From Escherichia coli (GTDB lineage: Bacteria > Pseudomonadota > Gammaproteobacteria > Enterobacterales > Enterobacteriaceae): a DNA stretch of 64,000 nucleotides. Location of the stretch: the NCBI RefSeq assembly GCF_013315695.1, contig NZ_CP054353.1, one strand, 5' to 3'. The notes below the pieces were generated by a model, which was not told the DNA's origin, made no database searches, and worked only from the letters and a program-made list of their open reading frames with translations. The stretch's first letter is position 1. Every line of letters starts with the position of its first letter. The position numbers were made by a program, and so were the translations under genes. Positions 5,567 to 34,105 of the stretch are shown here, in pieces.

Positions 5567-5876
5567 TTATTCCCGGTAGTTTTCCTCTGTAGGTTATCAA
5601 CACATCCTGCGCCTCTAAAATTACGGGGCGCTTTTCCGGCGACTGCTCATCCCCTTCACATAACCCGGCAGCAACATCCAGGAAGACCTGTCTGATGCTC
5701 CTTCTGGCTGCTGCCTCATAAAACTCCAGCGCGGCACCTTCAACACGGTCCAGCGAGATGTCCAGGTCAAAAATTTCACCGTCAAAGCGTTTTTTGTCCC
5801 GTAACGCTAAAGTTACCGTAACTTTATTCTCAAAATTGCGGATCCCTTTCACAATCAGTTCATAGTTTTGAGTCAT
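5532..5876 (-). CDS. hypothetical protein (114 aa) immediately downstream of the holin
   Basis: ATG 4 nt after the holin stop with GGGGAGAG as SD; soluble-looking product MTQNYELIVKGIRNFENKV...; no recognised domain. Confidence 0.55.
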   Translation of the reverse strand: MTQNYELIVKGIRNFENKVTVTLALRDKKRFDGEIFDLDISLDRVEGAALEFYEAAARRSIRQVFLDVAAGLCEGDEQSPEKRPVILEAQDVLITYRGKLPGIITGSLKSPPKW

Positions 5877-5880
5877 TGAA

Positions 5881-6096
5881 TTACTCTCCCCGTGCAGCCT
5901 TACGACGGTCCTCTCTGATTTTGAAATACAGGTTAGTCAGATATGTCAGCAGCCCAAACAGCAGACTCCCCAGCACGCCTATTGCCGCCCACTGAGACGG
6001 GGAAACCCTGTCCAGCAACTGCAGGAACCAGTAGCCCGTTCCCACCGCTGACGTGGTGTATGACACACCTGTTGTGATTTTTTCCATCTGGTACAT
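5881..6096 (-). CDS. class II pinholin, phage-21 S-like, dual start (71-aa and 68-aa forms)
   Basis: [13 protein letters not shown]... with two in-frame Met codons 3 codons apart (starts at 6096 and 6087); two TM segments; C-terminus ...[14 protein letters not shown]; ORF-track ORF extends to 6174. Confidence 0.8.
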
Positions 6097-6131
6097 ACCC
6101 CGTCTCCCGTTATCCGGAAGCTGACAACAAT

Positions 6132-6162
6132 AAAAAAAGCCACCAGTTAAGTACTGATGGCT
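6132..6162 (-). terminator. intrinsic terminator between esterase and holin
   Basis: On the minus strand, a 10-bp stem (one mismatch) followed by TTTTTTTATT. Confidence 0.45.
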
Positions 6163-6246
6163 CTGATAACTCATGCAGGCATCTCAGACGACCCACTGAC
6201 ACTACCGGTGAGTTTAACGATACCTTCCATTTGGCTGGCTCACTTT

Positions 6247-8100
6247 TTATGATGATGCCGGTGCATTTATCTCCAGCACCAGACTTTCTATCTCAACGCC
6301 ATACGCTGCATTTTTGGTAATATCCGTCAGCGTCAGCGCATTCAGCCCCAGTGTCAGACTGTCTTTTATGACCTGGAATGCCGGGCCAGCCACTCCATTC
6401 AGTTTCGGAGTAACCGTGGCACTGCCGGCGGTGAACACCAGCTCCAGCGTCTGCCAGTCGTTACTGTAATTCCCGAACTCGCCCAACTTTGTGTTTCCTG
6501 CTTTCTTGTGATGCATCAGATTCAGTTTGCCGTCTGTGGTCTGGGTGAAGAACGACATCAGGAACGGGTTACCAGTCCCGGTCATCGCCACGACGTCAGG
6601 TAACGCTACATCGGTATACAGATAAATTCCCAGACCGAACTGGTTGTTGGTCAGTGCGCCTGACAGTCGAAACTTACAGCTCAGTCTGCCACCCCGTGTC
6701 AGCAGGGAGACTGCGTCATCCACCGGGCGCGTCAGGGACCAGGCTTTATTGCTCTGCTTGGTGATCTTAAATACACCATCTGACAACTGAATTCCGCCAT
6801 TCTTAATGCTCCAGCCCTGCGCAGCAGCGTCTCCGGCTGTCGGCAACAGGGAGATTGTGCGTATGGATGCATCTTCAGACGGCCCCGATGGCGTGTCGCC
6901 GCCGGGCGAGGGTTTGATTTCCGGTGCCTTACCACTAATGAAGGCTAAGGTGCGACCGGCTACGTTCAGAATAGCAGTTGCCATACGATCGGGAATAATG
7001 CCACGACGCGCCCATGAGCTGAAATGCGTCGGGCGATTTGATGATACCCAGTTTTTGTTCGTTCGGGATGCCGAACCGTAATAACCAGACCCGGCAATAT
7101 CAGGATCTTCTGACGGGTTGTTTGTCGGTGTATTAACTCCGCTACCATCGGTCATAAAGGGAACAAAATAAATCTGCTGGGATTCTTTACCTTTATATGC
7201 ACCATATACCACTTCATATTGCGTACCGTGTTCTTGTTTCCACGCGTATGTCGTGTCGCCACAAATCCAGGGGACTGATGCCGGACTTCCACCGTGACAC
7301 TGCGCCGCCAGCCCGGCAAGGTCAGCACGGAACTGCTGTACCATTGCAAGAAATGCTGCTGGCTGCTGGGCGTAACTGGCATTCGTCATATCGAATTCCC
7401 CCTGCATCCAGCATATCGCCAGCAAAACGTTTTTCGGGTTTTTCTGCAATGCTGCCTTCGTGCGGAAAAGCAGATCCTGATATAACGGCTTACCCACTCC
7501 CCAGCGAGCCGAATCCTGACTGGCTCCCGTGGACTCGCTGAATGTCCCCTCCGTGCCCTGGGTGAATGCCGAACCACCACGACAGCATGGTACCAGCAGG
7601 ATCCCCGCATTATTAGGGATATACGGAAGCAGTTTTTTGGCAATATGTAAGCCCTGTCCGACACAGCCGTACTGCCCTTTGCTCAGGTCAGCCCGGGGAT
7701 GGTTAATCGTACTCATATCCTGAACATCATGCAGACAATGGTCAGCAGGAATGATGTCGTTAAATACGCATACTTCACCACCGGGAGTCACTGTGTTACG
7801 ACGGGCCAGTTGCTTAATGCGCGGATGGGGCGCATCGTATGAATCCGGAAGCGGAAGCCCTTCACCGTAAGCCATGGCATTGGATTGCCCGGCCAGTACG
7901 ATGACGTAGTACCACTCCGGCTCAGTTGCACCACTGACGACCACATCACCTTCTGCTGCAATCGCCTGCATCAGGGTATAAGGGGTTATGGCCACCGGAC
8001 TACCAAACGGCTGCCAGCCCTCCTTCAGTTTTTGTGTCAGTCGTTTCGCAAGGTCTGACGGCGATGCCGCCCTGACCACGTCATAGTGTTTAAATGCCAT
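6247..8100 (-). CDS. prophage sialate O-acetylesterase-like SGNH hydrolase (NanS-p-like)
   Basis: 617-aa product; LAGQSNAMAYGEG block typical of SASA/SGNH esterases; GGGAGGA SD 5 nt upstream; position between tRNA genes and holin as in Stx-type lambdoid phages. Confidence 0.65.
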   Translation of the reverse strand: MAFKHYDVVRAASPSDLAKRLTQKLKEGWQPFGSPVAITPYTLMQAIAAEGDVVVSGATEPEWYYVIVLAGQSNAMAYGEGLPLPDSYDAPHPRIKQLARRNTVTPGGEVCVFNDIIPADHCLHDVQDMSTINHPRADLSKGQYGCVGQGLHIAKKLLPYIPNNAGILLVPCCRGGSAFTQGTEGTFSESTGASQDSARWGVGKPLYQDLLFRTKAALQKNPKNVLLAICWMQGEFDMTNASYAQQPAAFLAMVQQFRADLAGLAAQCHGGSPASVPWICGDTTYAWKQEHGTQYEVVYGAYKGKESQQIYFVPFMTDGSGVNTPTNNPSEDPDIAGSGYYGSASRTNKNWVSSNRPTHFSSWARRGIIPDRMATAILNVAGRTLAFISGKAPEIKPSPGGDTPSGPSEDASIRTISLLPTAGDAAAQGWSIKNGGIQLSDGVFKITKQSNKAWSLTRPVDDAVSLLTRGGRLSCKFRLSGALTNNQFGLGIYLYTDVALPDVVAMTGTGNPFLMSFFTQTTDGKLNLMHHKKAGNTKLGEFGNYSNDWQTLELVFTAGSATVTPKLNGVAGPAFQVIKDSLTLGLNALTLTDITKNAAYGVEIESLVLEINAPASS

Positions 8101-8294
8101 GAATCCTCCCGGGCGGGATAATGTTGTGAGTCAGATAAGGAGCAGGCTGAAGTCCGGAAGTTACAGGACAATGGCAGAAGGGAGACTACAGCCCGCAATT
8201 CGAAAAAGACCGCGCAGTTGCGCAGAGTGATTACTATGGGGTATTATTCGCCAGCTGAAATATTACTTCACGTTTTATTGTTTATTCCTTGCCG

Positions 8295-8322
8295 CCCGCG
8301 TCTCCCAGCGCGGGCTTTTTTT
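8295..8322 (+). terminator. plus-strand intrinsic terminator
   Basis: CCCGCG-loop-CGCGGG hairpin followed by a T7 run. Confidence 0.4.
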
Positions 8323-8325
8323 GTC

Positions 8326-8562
8326 CATAAGAAAGCCCCTCCGGAGAGGGGCTAAAGCCGCGTATCTGTATCATCATGCACATGGTGCCGGGTGCCTCCC
8401 GGTGAGTTCAGCCCGGTGCCACTAAACCCGCGTCATTCTCGTTTTGATAATCAGAGATTATACCGTCACCAGTCGCCCCTCCGCTCAGGGGGATTCACCA
8501 TGCGAAATTTTTTTAACAAATGCCCAGTCTGACAGGCAACTGTCAACTTACTGAATTGTGAG
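8326..8562. repeat. direct repeat copy A (about 237 bp) in the late operon
   Basis: Shares with copy B the blocks AAAGCCCCTCCGGAGAGGGGCT, CATGGTGCCGGGTGCCTCCCGGTGA, GCCCCTCCGC-CAGGGGGATTCACCATGC, TTTTAACAAA and CTGAATTGTGAG. Confidence 0.6.
8335..8352 (-). terminator. hairpin GCCCCTC-CGGA-GAGGGGC with downstream U-rich tract on the minus strand (repeat A)
   Basis: Perfect 7-bp GC stem; in minus orientation followed by TTTCTT. Confidence 0.45.
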
Positions 8563-8812
8563 CAACATAGCATTTAACGGGGAACCTGTTTTCTGCAGTA
8601 AAAAGGCCCACCGGAGCGGATGGGCCTGGAAGGATAGCGGTCATGTGATGCCGGTTTCCCGGTAACTCAGCACCGGTATCTGAGTCAACGTTTTCTCTAC
8701 TGGGTCATTTCCGATACGCCCTGCCTGCTGACAGGCTTTCATCACATCTGAAAATATAGCACCCTGACTGATACTGTAGTACCTAAGGTTCCAGAAACTG
8801 TGATGTATCCGG

Positions 8813-28772: not shown

Positions 28773-29069
28773 GTGTTGTATGTTATTTACGCTCAAGACA
28801 AAGCTGATAGCCTCGAAAAACGCCTTTCCGTTCGTCCGGCACATTTAGCACGTTTACAGTTACTGCATGATGAAGGTCGTTTGTTGACCGCCGGTCCAAT
28901 GCCAGCAGTAGACAGTAACGATCCAGGGGCTGCGGGATTTACTGGCTCAACCGTTATTGCTGAATTTGAGTCGCTGGAAGCAGCTCAGGCCTGGGCCGAT
29001 GCTGACCCGTACGTAGCGGCAGGAGTCTATGAACACGTTTCAGTGAAACCATTTAAGAAAGTGTTTTGA
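28773..29069 (+). CDS. yciI: YciI-like protein
   Basis: GTG start 5 nt after AAGGAG; product [38 protein letters not shown]... Confidence 0.85.
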
Positions 29070-29221
29070 ATAAATTAAATATTATTTAAATTCAAAGCAA
29101 TAACGAAAGACAGTCAACATAATCAATAATAAAGGGCGCATTTAAGTACACATTAATCTAAGCGCCCCTTTTTTTTCGCTACGACTTATACTTTCAGTCT
29201 GACATCTGGCTGGAGGTTTCT

Positions 29222-29479
29222 ATGTGCGGACGCTTTTCACAGTCAATGACGCGTGAAGACTATCTCGCCCTTCTCGCAGATGAAGTCGAGCAAGACATTC
29301 CATATGACCCTGAACCGATCGGACGTTTCAACGTTGCGCCAGGCACCAAAGTTCTGCTTCTGAGCGAACGTGACGAGAAACTCCATCTTGATCCAGTTTT
29401 CTGGGGATACGCCCCGGATGGTGGGATAAACCTGGATTTTTACACATACCAAAGACAGATTAGATACTCTACTAATTAG
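29222..29479 (+). pseudogene. 5' fragment of an SRAP/YedK-family gene (about 70 codons), truncated
   Basis: MCGRFSQSMTREDYLALLADEVEQDIPYDPEPIGRFNVAPGTKVLLLSERDEKLHLDPVFWGYAP then unrelated AT-rich sequence and a stop; full-length family members are about 220 aa. Confidence 0.6.
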
Positions 29480-29587
29480 ATTTTAAACTCATGATTAGTA
29501 AGAGAGACTACCATGATTTATTTAACCAAAATGTCATTTTGTGATATTCTGCATAAAAGTTCATTATTCTAGAGATAGAGCATTAAT

Positions 29588-31381
29588 ATGAGTATCGGTT
29601 TGAGCAAAGTCGTTACAAGATATAAAAACTTAAAGTTGAAATCATATGTTTTCGACATTGTCAACGTTATGTTTTTATTGTACTTATTTTGTTTTCTAAA
29701 TCAGTCAATAGTTATCATAGGAAATATTGAACCGCCTAAAGAGTTAATTGGTGCAATATTGAATTTCATCTGGCGTTCATCCCCCATTTTGTTTATTTAT
29801 TTGTTATTTAGAATAATAAACATTCCAATTTTTCTATGTTCTTATTTATCAGGCATCGCAATTATAACATTGATGTTTGTGAACAGTACTAAAATGGCGT
29901 TAACCGGTGAGCCTTTATCATTTAATGACATTGTTTCTGGATTCAATTTGAGTGTCGCAGGAAAATACCTCAACTTATCATCCATTACTTACTCTGTCGC
30001 TATTCTAATTGGCGCAATAATCTCAATCCTACTTAGCAAAAAAACGGTCACAACAAGAAAAAATTATATATCGTTATTTCTTTTAATTATCATTACGATC
30101 CCCTTTTCATTCTACCCCTATATTGGAACCATTTTTAGCCCTAACAATAGGATTTCTGAAATCATAAACTCCAGCGCGAACAACTTAAATATAAAATATA
30201 TTTACTGGAATTGGTCTCAAAATATTGGCGTTAATGGCTTGCCAATGCATATAATACAAACAAGTGTCAGAAAATCTGTACCACATGCAACTGATGCAGA
30301 ACAATTAAGATATTTAGATGAAAAAAGATCTTTAGTATCCACTCATATAAAAAATAAAACCATTATTTATGTTTTATGTGAATCATGTTGGTATGATAAA
30401 AAAAACTTCCGAGAAAATTTCAAACCTGTTATTGATGAAGGTTACAGTGAATTACGGGCCATCTCACCAGTTTACGGTGGAGGTACCGCAAATGCCGAAT
30501 TTGAAATGCTGACAGGACTACCAAGTAATTCAGATAAAATATCAGGAATCATCTATCAAGAATATTCAGATGCATTCAAACCAAAAGTTGACGCATTACC
30601 TAATGCCCTGAAAAACAAAGGCTATATTACTTTCGCAGCACATAATTACCAAGCAGACTTTTGGTATAGGAATAAAATTTACCCTAAATTTGGATTTGAT
30701 AGATTTGATAGCATTATTAATATGGGAGATTTACCACCAGAGTATAGCAGTATTAAAAAACCATGGCAGTGGCAACCTGATGACTACCTGCTTTACAATG
30801 CAGCATTAAAAGCCATCCAAAATGCAGGAAACAAAGATATTTTTGTACATTTGATCACTATGTCAACTCATGGTCCTTATCAACACATTAATGATTATGG
30901 TGAAGGTGTTTATACCTATGAGATTAATGAGGCAGTCAAAAGATTCGTTCAATTTTCACAGCAAGTAGAAAAAATAGATCCAAATGCTGTAATCGTCTTT
31001 TACGGTGACCATAAACCACCACTAAATAAATATTTCGTCGAAAATGGGGTGCTACCAAGTAATATTTTCAACAAAATCGGAGAAGAAAAAGATGAAGATT
31101 TCGTCTTTAAAATGAGCACAACCCCACTCGATTTTGGTGATGTTCCTGTGCTTATTAAATCAAATGATAAAGACGCCATTAAAAAATTCATAACCGACGC
31201 CAATGGAAAACCTTTTTTCTGTGTATCTTCATTAGTTGATAAACATTTCATTCAATCTGGATTGGTATCATTTAATCACAACGCAAAGCATGTCTGTGAA
31301 AACAGTGATAACTTTAATTATGATAAGTTAATTAACATGACCCCGTCGTGGATTTATTCAATGTCATTATTTCACGATTAG
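29588..31381 (+). CDS. sulfatase-superfamily membrane protein (LTA-synthase / phosphoethanolamine-transferase-like), AT-rich
   Basis: 597-aa product; N-terminal multi-TM region, C-terminal domain with YVLCESCW and STHGPYQH motifs; codon usage strongly AT-biased. Confidence 0.6.
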   Translation: MSIGLSKVVTRYKNLKLKSYVFDIVNVMFLLYLFCFLNQSIVIIGNIEPPKELIGAILNFIWRSSPILFIYLLFRIINIPIFLCSYLSGIAIITLMFVNSTKMALTGEPLSFNDIVSGFNLSVAGKYLNLSSITYSVAILIGAIISILLSKKTVTTRKNYISLFLLIIITIPFSFYPYIGTIFSPNNRISEIINSSANNLNIKYIYWNWSQNIGVNGLPMHIIQTSVRKSVPHATDAEQLRYLDEKRSLVSTHIKNKTIIYVLCESCWYDKKNFRENFKPVIDEGYSELRAISPVYGGGTANAEFEMLTGLPSNSDKISGIIYQEYSDAFKPKVDALPNALKNKGYITFAAHNYQADFWYRNKIYPKFGFDRFDSIINMGDLPPEYSSIKKPWQWQPDDYLLYNAALKAIQNAGNKDIFVHLITMSTHGPYQHINDYGEGVYTYEINEAVKRFVQFSQQVEKIDPNAVIVFYGDHKPPLNKYFVENGVLPSNIFNKIGEEKDEDFVFKMSTTPLDFGDVPVLIKSNDKDAIKKFITDANGKPFFCVSSLVDKHFIQSGLVSFNHNAKHVCENSDNFNYDKLINMTPSWIYSMSLFHD

Positions 31382-31731
31382 TATCTAGAAAATAATTGTA
31401 ATAAATCATCATTAATTATGTAGACGCCTAAAATTAGGCATCTACATTTTATTAGAAAAGAGGTTGTCCTGACTAGGTTGTGGAAATGTGCATCGCATAA
31501 ATCAAGGCTATAGAGCATGAAAGTGCGTTCTTCCCCCTCTACCATTGATAAATATTTAAAAGTGCTCACGCTGGATTCGATCCAGGCATTAGCATCTTTG
31601 AGTGAGAATTCCCAGTTAACTTTGCTCAACCCCTGAACAAATCGCTGTGTAGTGACGGTCTTCCGGCCATTCGGCTCTTGCTGTATCGAAGAATACCAGG
31701 CTATTTCAATATCGCTGCGTCGTGGCATCAT
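31378..31731 (-). CDS. hypothetical protein (117 aa), possibly a gene fragment
   Basis: ATG pair with GAGGG upstream; divergent from the dinI-like gene; ORF-track ORF extends to 31977. Confidence 0.35.
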   Translation of the reverse strand: MMPRRSDIEIAWYSSIQQEPNGRKTVTTQRFVQGLSKVNWEFSLKDANAWIESSVSTFKYLSMVEGEERTFMLYSLDLCDAHFHNLVRTTSFLIKCRCLILGVYIINDDLLQLFSRY

Positions 31732-31771
31732 TACGCCCTCTCTTGAATACCGGATAAAAACACAGTATAAA

Positions 31772-31791
31772 TACTGTATATACACCCAGTA
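31772..31791. promoter_or_regulatory. LexA (SOS) box upstream of the dinI-like gene
   Basis: TACTGTATATACACCCAGTA: CTGT-N8-CCAG, one mismatch from the CTGT-N8-ACAG core; overlapping palindrome ACAGTATAAATACTGT just upstream. Confidence 0.6.
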
Positions 31792-31806
31792 AAGAGGCAA
31801 TGAGCA

Positions 31807-32034
31807 ATGTTCGTGGAACTCGTTTATGGCAAAAGGAATTTTGATGGACTGCCCGGTGCAAAAGATATCATTCTGGGCGAGTTGACCAAGAGGGTTCACC
31901 GGATTTTCCCCGGCGCTGATGTCCGGGTTAAACCGATGATGACATTGCCGGCGATCAACACTGACGCCAACAAGCATGAGAATGAACAGATAAGCCGTAC
32001 TGTTCAGGAAATGTTTGAAGAGACTGATATGTAG
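31807..32034 (+). CDS. DinI-like protein
   Basis: 75-aa product MFVELVYGKRNFDGLPGAKDIILGELTKRVHRIFPGADVRVKPMMTLPAINTDANKHENEQISRTVQEMFEETDM; AGAGG RBS; LexA box upstream. Confidence 0.7.
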   Translation: MFVELVYGKRNFDGLPGAKDIILGELTKRVHRIFPGADVRVKPMMTLPAINTDANKHENEQISRTVQEMFEETDM

Positions 32035-32122
32035 CTGTTTTCAGATTAAACGCCTTGAACCGTCACACTGATTAAGTACAATCCGGCGTGGTTGCGGCTT
32101 CCAGATTATAAGAATGATTCCC

Positions 32123-32550
32123 TTACTCACTTTTCAGCGCATTCACTTCTTCTCGTAATTCACTGAGTTCGTTCATTAGTACCAGAATCGCTTCATGATG
32201 CAACGCTGCCGCAACGCCGTAAGTATCTGGAGAGAGTACTCCTTCCACCATAGTTCCATCAGGAAGTTGACGATCACCTCCCTCAGTTACTGCCTGGGGG
32301 AAGATTTTCTTAACATCCTGCGCGATAAACCCAATCCCCCATTGTCCGGTATCTTTTCGCGTCCAGGAACAACCTTTTAGCATTTCCATCTTACTGAGCG
32401 GGTCTCCAATTCTGGACACTCCATCTTTCAGGCGGCCATCTGAATTCGGAACCCATGCTCCAGGCGCTACAGCGTTACCAGTTGATTTCATAAAGCTCCA
32501 TGTGGTTCCTGAGCTTGCGTTTGCTACCTGAATATTCCCTGATAAAGAAC
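32123..32550 (-). pseudogene. C-terminal fragment of a phage tail-fibre protein (intramolecular chaperone-type domain), 5' end removed by IS insertion
   Basis: ...GQWGIGFIAQDVKKIFPQAVTEGGDRQLPDGTMVEGVLSPDTYGVAAALHHEAILVLMNELSELREEVNALKSE; the frame runs upstream into the IS inverted repeat. Confidence 0.6.
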
Positions 32551-33473
<923 letters not shown>

Positions 33474-33602
33474 GTATCGGTAGAAAAAAGAAACTTTACC
33501 AGCCTGACTGATCCTTGCGTTCAGCCCATGAGAATCTGAAATGGTTTCGATATCATCTCGTTTCTTGCCCAGGGACTTCCTGAGCTTTGTGTCGGTAATC
33601 AT
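33474..33602 (-). pseudogene. N-terminal fragment (43 codons) of a P4-type integrase, cut by the IS element
   Basis: [43 protein letters not shown] resembles the DUF4102-type N-terminus of P4-family integrases; frame runs into the IS right end. Confidence 0.5.
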
Positions 33603-34105
33603 TGAATGTGTACACATCTGGCTTGCGAGTACGCAAAAGTGTACACAAAACTCGTTGCTCAAAGATACCCGCAATGTAACACTTGTACTCGAAGTGTGAT
33701 GGCTTAGGGGCTGAAAGGCAGATGGCGTAAGGGTTCAACGTAACAGAACGTTTTTATGCGAAATTCTTCGAAATGGTCTGAATGACATTTTAAGAAAGTG
33801 TTCTGAATAGAAATTCAATATTTAAGGGCACGGTTTTTGCAACCGTGTTCTTGTTTGGCCTTTCCTTATAGGTCGGTCAGTGCATTCACCACCACAAGCA
33901 GATAATAACTTTATCTGTATTTCTTTATATGATGTGAACATATTCAGGAAAATGCCCTTTCCTGACGCAGAGTTGCTCACTCAAAACCTTTGATTACTGC
34001 GGATAAAGTCATCTACTATTGTTTAACACATTCACGCGCTGCATGTATGTTCAGAAAATGTGCACGTTGAGATAATTAAACAAAATTGTGGTTACAGAGG
34101 TATCA

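Follow-up and report, generated by a model that had tools for sequence, protein, structure and literature searches.

The 64-kb stretch of Escherichia coli DNA analyzed here (hereafter the window) holds, between yciI and kch, the features summarized in Table 1. From the yciI side these comprise a truncated gene of the SRAP/YedK family, an AT-rich cassette with an LTA-synthase-family gene, a small phage gene of the phrog_3893 family, a DinI-like gene, the 3'-terminal part of a tail-fibre gene, a remnant of an IS3-family element, and the first codons of a phi80-type integrase gene, all of them enclosed by two copies of a 21-nt direct repeat. Promoter and terminator scans gave counts at the chance level.

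Table 1. Features of the yciI-kch region, with positions in the window.
Feature	Position	Strand	Evidence
yciI	28773-29069	+	PGAP annotation of a 100%-identical record, YciI WP_000967595.1
attL, left 21-nt direct repeat TTTAAGAAAGTGTT(T/C)TGAATA with phi80 att core	29052-29072		Repeat search; empty-site and phi80/L6-21 alignments
phi80-like attP P' arm with hairpin GGGCGC (29134-29139) / GCGCCC (29162-29167), then T8	29073-29178		Alignment to phi80 and L6-21 arms
SRAP/YedK-family pseudogene, 5' 211 nt (~codons 1-71)	29222-29432	+	Family matches; alignment breakpoint; PGAP label
1-nt deletion, CCCC vs CCCCC in intact relatives	29412-29415	+	Nucleotide alignment; SRAP frame shifted at codon 65/66
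AT-rich cassette, 2.07 kb, 32.0% GC	29433-31500		GC content by segment
LTA-synthase/phosphoglycerol-transferase-family gene, 597 aa, apparently intact	29588-31381	+	Pfam Sulfatase, E 2.8e-27
Small phage gene, phrog_3893 (79-aa family), 77 homologous codons	31501-31731	-	PHROG match; PGAP 'hypothetical protein, missing C-terminus'
LexA-box-like site TACTGTATATACACCCAGTA	31772-31791		Pattern match with one mismatch; divergent promoter region, 16 nt upstream of the DinI-like gene
DinI-like gene, 75 aa	31807-32034	+	Pfam DinI, E 3.5e-15; phrog_189 'RecA filament binding protein DinI'
Tail-fibre gene, C-terminal stub (intramolecular chaperone domain), cut by IS	32123-32550	-	Pfam Peptidase_S74, E 3.1e-12; phrog_1980
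ISEc31-like IS3-family element, internally deleted	32551-33475	+	Inverted repeats; alignment to a full-length ISEc31-like copy
phi80-type tyrosine integrase, first 42 codons (Arm DNA-binding domain), cut by IS	33477-33602	-	phi80 Int match; PGAP pseudogene
phi80-like attP P arm including int promoter region	33603-33788		~79% nucleotide identity to int-attP regions
attR, right copy of 21-nt direct repeat	33789-33809		Repeat search; empty-site alignment

The truncated SRAP/YedK-family gene

The open reading frame at 29222-29479 (+) in the ORF list encodes 85 aa and begins with MCGRFSQSMTREDYLALL, which gives the MCGRF start. The initial annotation had described it as about 70 codons of an SRAP gene with this start, followed by unrelated AT-rich sequence, and this description was in good agreement with the family profiles. 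The Pfam SRAP profile (PF02586) matched with an E-value of 2.7e-7 and 30.8 bits (cut-off 27.1), aligning residues 1-66 of the ORF with profile positions 1-65 of 214, and the NCBIfam model for the YedK subfamily (PRK09951) matched over positions 1-66 of 222 (E 1.1e-36). The intact 223-aa SRAP of a prophage in E. coli AH01 exhibited 94% identity to the stub over residues 1-65 (tblastn, E 1.4e-37). Furthermore, nucleotide alignment to two intact SRAP genes revealed that the homology stops exactly at 29432, between ...GATAAACC and TGGATTTT, so that the first 70-71 codons of the ORF correspond to SRAP/YedK and its remainder is foreign sequence.

Correction of the 1-nt deletion recovered merely five further homologous residues, the corrected translation running ...GYAPGWWDKP and then into unrelated sequence with a stop nine residues on; the truncation thus survived the frameshift correction, and no full-length SRAP was obtained. 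In a six-frame search of the whole 64-kb window, the C-terminal part of SRAP was absent from every frame, the best other match having an E-value of 0.43, and a hidden full-length gene was ruled out by this search together with the correction. The lesions were identical in all 30 genomes that carry the region (see below); since these are independent complete genomes, the lesions are real and old rather than an assembly error.

SRAP proteins cross-link abasic sites via Cys2, and Glu105 and His160 are catalytic (PMC9436759). Cys2 was kept in the stub directly after the initiator Met, aligned to position 1 of the SRAP profile, and the stub shares with E. coli YedK and human HMCES, the SRAP proteins of abasic-site DNA-protein cross-linking, the Met-Cys2-Gly-Arg-Phe start and the first ~71 residues. 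In contrast to these proteins, it is frameshifted and lacks residues 72-223, and with the complete ~220-aa domain thus absent, it is not a member of the family in the functional sense. In particular, Asn75, Glu105, and His160 (YedK numbering) are missing even after the frameshift correction, the homology ending at residue 71. Lacking these three residues and two-thirds of the fold, the stub would presumably be unable to make the thiazolidine cross-link with abasic sites by which SRAP function is defined, and it is best read as a non-functional pseudogene. The pseudogene status is already present in the public annotation, in which PGAP/RefSeq labels the stub 'SOS response-associated peptidase family protein; frameshifted; incomplete; missing C-terminus' and also marks the fragments around it.

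Boundaries, attachment site, and distribution of the insert

The initial annotation had proposed a search for direct repeats at the island ends, and such a search identified the 21-nt repeat given in Table 1 as the top-ranked one in the region, with 95% identity between its copies and a spacing of 4,737 bp. The left copy lies within the 3' end of yciI, the last codons and stop of which (TGA, 29067-29069) now come from attL of the element; the YciI protein is nevertheless identical in the carrier and in strain 4/1-1, the TTC to TTT change in attL being synonymous. In strain 4/1-1 the site is empty, with a single copy of the core, the yciI stop followed by the native yciI-kch spacer, and no SRAP sequence between the two genes. 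Alignment with this empty site revealed that the native intergenic DNA resumes at attR in the window. The inserted element therefore covers ~29052-33809 (~4.74 kb), and the SRAP fragment begins ~150-170 bp inside it from attL. Because the att repeat is situated in yciI and the empty site is devoid of SRAP, the SRAP fragment is inserted cargo and not a resident gene at the edge. These results required two corrections to the initial annotation, which had placed the insert at 29430-34000 and had taken the SRAP truncation as the left edge of the island. The left boundary is attL instead of ~29430, and the truncation marks the left junction of a secondary cassette (29433-31500) nested within the inserted DNA.

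The 3' end of yciI is the classical phi80 attachment site att80 (PMC5727415; PMC11148124), and the core of the repeat matched the annotated attP core of phi80 (JX871397). The assumption that yciI and kch are usually adjacent was borne out by this literature and by the empty site. A 5.7-kb query from yciI to kch was found almost whole in only 30 of the 5,426 complete E. coli genomes, and in nearly all the others the yciI and kch flanks were ~960 bp apart; the region is accordingly accessory, as had been presumed, and its arrangement is not that of most E. coli. Exactly 30 genomes contained the cassette and its junctions, with identities of 99.8% or more. Among the carriers was SMS-3-5, which belongs to ST354 (PMC9174282). 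The yciI-kch island, being an att80 prophage remnant found in this small fraction of the complete genomes, including the ST354 strain, is usable as a lineage marker.

Occupation of att80 by a phi80-type int-attR was found in 204 of the 5,426 genomes, including several laboratory-derived strains, and the defective phi80dlacZdeltaM15 also resides at this site (yciI 3' end/kch). In strain L6-21, a complete prophage of ~45 kb occupies att80 with a full-length integrase beside kch. The L6-21 prophage combines a phi80-like int/attP with a contractile-tail late region (sheath and baseplate).

phi80-type features of the element

Both attP arms of the element resembled those of phi80. On the left, the P' arm contains a block conserved in phi80 attP and L6-21 attL, AATCAATAA..TAAAGGGC.CATT.AAGTACACA, and has its hairpin in common with the phi80 P' arm; on the right, the segment 33476-33810 shared ~79% nucleotide identity with the corresponding int-attP segments of phi80, HK225, mEp237, and mEpX1, the records of which annotate the attP core there. 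The integrase fragment exhibited 93% identity to residues 6-47 of phi80 Int (E 4e-26) and a weak match to Arm-DNA-bind_3. With 42 codons left beside the kch-side att and the catalytic domain absent, it does not constitute a functional integrase. This remnant and its PGAP annotation thus supported the earlier reading of the region as an integrative element that has decayed and that terminates, beside kch, in a piece of an integrase gene. The designation of the integrase as P4-type held insofar as the Arm-DNA-bind_3 architecture is shared, but the fragment is specifically of the phi80 type, as judged from its identity to phi80 Int and from the phi80-like attP arms.

In comparison with phi80 as a whole, the element shares the integration site and att core, the Int N-terminus, the two arms, and the order tail fibre, DinI-family gene with LexA site (dinL in phi80), ..., attP, int. 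It differs in its size (4.7 kb vs 46 kb), in the termination of Int at codon 42, in the absence of xis, in that an SRAP gene and not pinL abuts the P' arm, and in carrying an AT-rich cassette of foreign origin as well as the remnant of an IS3-family element. Of the phage structural, lysis, and replication genes, the C-terminal stub of the tail fibre alone remains. The element is therefore the remnant of a phi80-family prophage rather than a prophage.

Phage gene remnants

The gene at the right junction of the cassette matched phrog_3893 over positions 1-74 of 79 (E 1.1e-27) and was 66% identical to its counterpart in AH01, which has its own stop after 80 codons. The copy in the window is almost complete and reads into cassette-derived sequence, resulting in a 117-aa chimeric ORF (31378-31731, -). 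From synteny with AH01, 31501-31731 was considered as the N-terminus of an S24 peptidase; this assignment was rejected, the segment matching the stand-alone phrog_3893.

The DinI-like gene carries a TGG to TAG change that removes the last five residues in comparison with the AH01 copy. The LexA-box pattern was not enriched in the window (18 occurrences vs 18.6 expected), and the putative LexA-like site is accordingly proposed solely from its position and from annotated homologues, namely the LexA sites recorded at the equivalent position for phi80 dinL and phiKO2 DinI. The tail-fibre stub corresponds to positions 299-435 of 449 in phrog_1980, and its homology starts ~17 nt from the end of the IS.

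The ISEc31-like IS remnant

The IS3-family element retains both terminal inverted repeats (28 nt, 82%) and matched the NCBIfam transpos_IS3 model with an E-value of 1.6e-76, the DDE/rve domain being present. It is ~94.6% identical to ISEc31, with which it has the terminal inverted repeats in common, but differs by an internal deletion of 335 bp with its junction at 32755/32756, through which the frameshift region was lost and orfA was fused to orfB, and by the lack of a target-site duplication, the flanks (AAC and GTA) being different. The copy in the window is thus defective. Int codon 42 and the C-terminus of the tail fibre now face each other across an IS that lacks a target duplication, an arrangement consistent with an IS-associated deletion, which we infer to have removed the intervening prophage; the absent duplication by itself is compatible with such an IS-mediated event and not proof of it.

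A full-length match to the Rfam sRNA isrC (RF01387) was observed at 32619-32741 (+), with 145 bits where the gathering score is 39. The match is wholly contained in the left end of the IS and overlaps the start of orfA, so that homology to the IS, and not a separate sRNA gene, is its probable cause.

SRAP genes in other prophages

In 36 other E. coli records, an intact SRAP gene was present with 80-87% identity to the stub. In both of the loci inspected (strains 100181 and AH01), SRAP adjoins the att site at the end of a prophage. Strain 100181 has tRNA-Pro followed by SRAP, UmuC/UmuD (opposite strand), DinI, ..., pin, and tail fibre (locus 5706-8731), and in AH01 an e14-like element at icd carries SRAP, an S24 peptidase pseudogene, DinI, an invertase, and tail-fibre genes (locus 6036-7688). 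The frameshifted S24-peptidase gene of AH01 contains a (CTGG)n tetranucleotide tract (locus 7020-7060) that is possibly prone to slippage. In addition, SRAP- and DinI-like DNA lies within 1.76 kb at the end of Gifsy-2. The paper that named the family already described the linkage of SRAP with UmuDC and its occurrence in prophages (Aravind et al., 2013; PMC3765255).

The element in the window shares with these prophage-end modules (SRAP, UmuDC or S24 peptidase, and DinI) an SRAP gene reading inward from att, a divergent small gene, a DinI-like gene with an SOS-box-like site, and tail-fibre genes, whereas its middle part (SRAP 3' region, S24/UmuDC) has been replaced by the unrelated cassette. 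As judged from this synteny, the stub is what is left of an SOS-linked cargo module of a type already known from prophages.

Origin of the SRAP fragment and of the AT-rich cassette

We consider it highly probable that the 85-codon ORF is the dead remnant of a phage-borne SRAP gene, a paralogue of yedK, in a decayed phi80-like prophage at att80. Viewed instead as a chromosomal gene beside yciI that was truncated by an island inserted at ~29430 (island 29430-34000), the stub would account for the GC content falling sharply exactly at the SRAP breakpoint (32.0% over 29433-31500 vs 49.5% in the window left of the island). This explanation, however, is refuted by the empty-site alignment, since SRAP sequence is missing from the yciI-kch interval in genomes with an empty site. 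It is also at odds with the att80 repeat 170 bp upstream of the SRAP start, within yciI, with the phi80-like nature of the DNA between attL and SRAP, and with the relatives of the stub, of which chromosomal yedK is only ~78% identical at the nucleotide level and located elsewhere in the chromosome, the close ones lying at prophage ends in other sites. A resident origin is therefore practically untenable. As to the nature of the element, the Arm-DNA-bind_3 plus Phage_integrase architecture also occurs on islands and satellites, so that descent from a small non-phage integrative island or a phage satellite with a phi80-type integrase might be envisaged, the more so as just 42 integrase codons are left and the largest intact gene is not phage-like, its 597-aa product having no PHROG family and, in a peptide-pattern scan, no relatives in IMG/VR viral contigs. 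Against such an origin, the tail-fibre C-terminal fragment and the DinI-like gene stand in the order and orientation of phi80, synteny connects the SRAP/DinI module with prophage ends, the att arms on both sides are similar to phi80 attP, and in L6-21 the site harbours a full prophage; we regard it as very unlikely.

The cassette itself stands in place of the 3' two-thirds of SRAP, the intervening gene(s), and the final codons of the phrog_3893 gene. Its sharp and compositionally distinct junction, together with the occurrence of homologues of its gene singly at diverse chromosomal locations, some of them adjacent to integrases or an Ogr/Delta remnant, could suggest that it is mobile on its own, like a transposon or an integron-like cassette, in which case the loss of SRAP would be a simple insertional disruption. 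The 3' part of SRAP, however, is found neither downstream nor anywhere else in the window, and the right junction also truncates a different gene, which indicates that the event was a replacement or deletion. Moreover, the cassette ends show no convincing inverted or direct repeats, short matches there being at the chance level, and no transposase or integrase gene lies within the cassette. Among the 5,426 complete E. coli genomes, the cassette was found in the same 30 genomes and in this context only. Homologues of its gene in the plasmid collection were distant (at most 30% identity, with no close relative), and those sought in viral contigs were absent as noted above. An autonomous cassette is thus extremely improbable, and the replacement of part of a phage-borne SRAP gene within the phi80-like prophage is the reading that we follow below. 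For the stub, the consequence is mainly one of correct annotation, as phage cargo and not as a disrupted core gene.

Proposed history of the locus

On the evidence presented above (the limits of homology, the duplicated att core, the empty site, the relatives, and the occurrence among genomes), we infer the following order of events. A temperate phage of the phi80 family would have integrated at att80, in the last codons of yciI, through site-specific recombination by its tyrosine recombinase, thereby duplicating the ~21-bp core and re-supplying the 3' end of yciI. The tail-fibre-side end of this prophage presumably carried SOS-linked cargo consisting of SRAP (+), UmuDC or an S24 peptidase (-), and DinI (+). 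A more-intact version of the prophage with the SRAP allele was not found at att80, and the ancestral content from SRAP to the phrog_3893 gene was therefore deduced from the 80-87% identical relatives at other sites. The 2.07-kb AT-rich cassette with the LtaS/GacH-like gene would later have replaced SRAP from codon 72 onward along with the neighbouring gene(s), leaving no recombination signature, and the stub would then have been hit by the 1-nt deletion. The ISEc31-like element is likely linked to the loss of the region from the tail-fibre C-terminus to int codon 42, a loss on the order of 40 kb as estimated from phi80 and the L6-21 prophage, after which the IS itself would have lost 335 bp internally. 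Since int and xis are missing, the remnant cannot excise, and it appears to have been inherited vertically in the small set of genomes that includes SMS-3-5. The locus represents routine prophage decay at a textbook attachment site and is nothing new in kind.

The LTA synthase-family gene of the cassette

The sole gene on the cassette, which is also the only large intact gene in the remnant, encodes a 597-aa protein with approximately five hydrophobic segments within residues 17-179. The protein combines the features of the LTA synthase family, namely N-terminal transmembrane segments and a sulfatase-fold domain with conserved motifs. Among solved structures, those of the phosphoglycerol transferase GacH (E 2.3e-10) and of LtaP came closest, and alignment with GacH identified the motifs ES, GGGTAN.EF, and YGDH, which would correspond to the nucleophile and metal ligands of LtaS and GacH. 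It thus resembles LtaS, LtaP, GacH, and OpgB in having a multi-transmembrane N-terminal region and an extracytoplasmic sulfatase-fold domain, but the similarity is distant (E ~1e-10 to GacH; 27 bits against the 970-bit cut-off of the LtaS equivalog), and the cassette protein sits in its own clade within Enterobacterales. The closest known protein is 63-66% identical, and homologues of 590-600 aa with 45-63% identity were found in Citrobacter, Pragia, Kosakonia, and Enterobacter. No island protein matched the PADLOC defence models.

Within the island, this gene alone might have a consequence for the cell. It is a tentative possibility, to which we give rather less than even weight, that the transferase is a functional, lineage-specific envelope-modifying enzyme acting, after its capture at a prophage end, in a manner like lysogenic conversion, in which case selection could explain the persistence of the remnant in ST354-type strains despite the decay of all that surrounds the gene; such a transferase might, for example, decorate LPS, ECA, or periplasmic glucans with glycerol phosphate or a similar group. 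Some RefSeq records (e.g., WP_225877573.1) start the gene at residue 96, yielding a protein of 502 aa that lacks two to three of the membrane segments. Given the length of the homologues, the long start giving 597 aa is the correct one, and the start in these records can be corrected accordingly.
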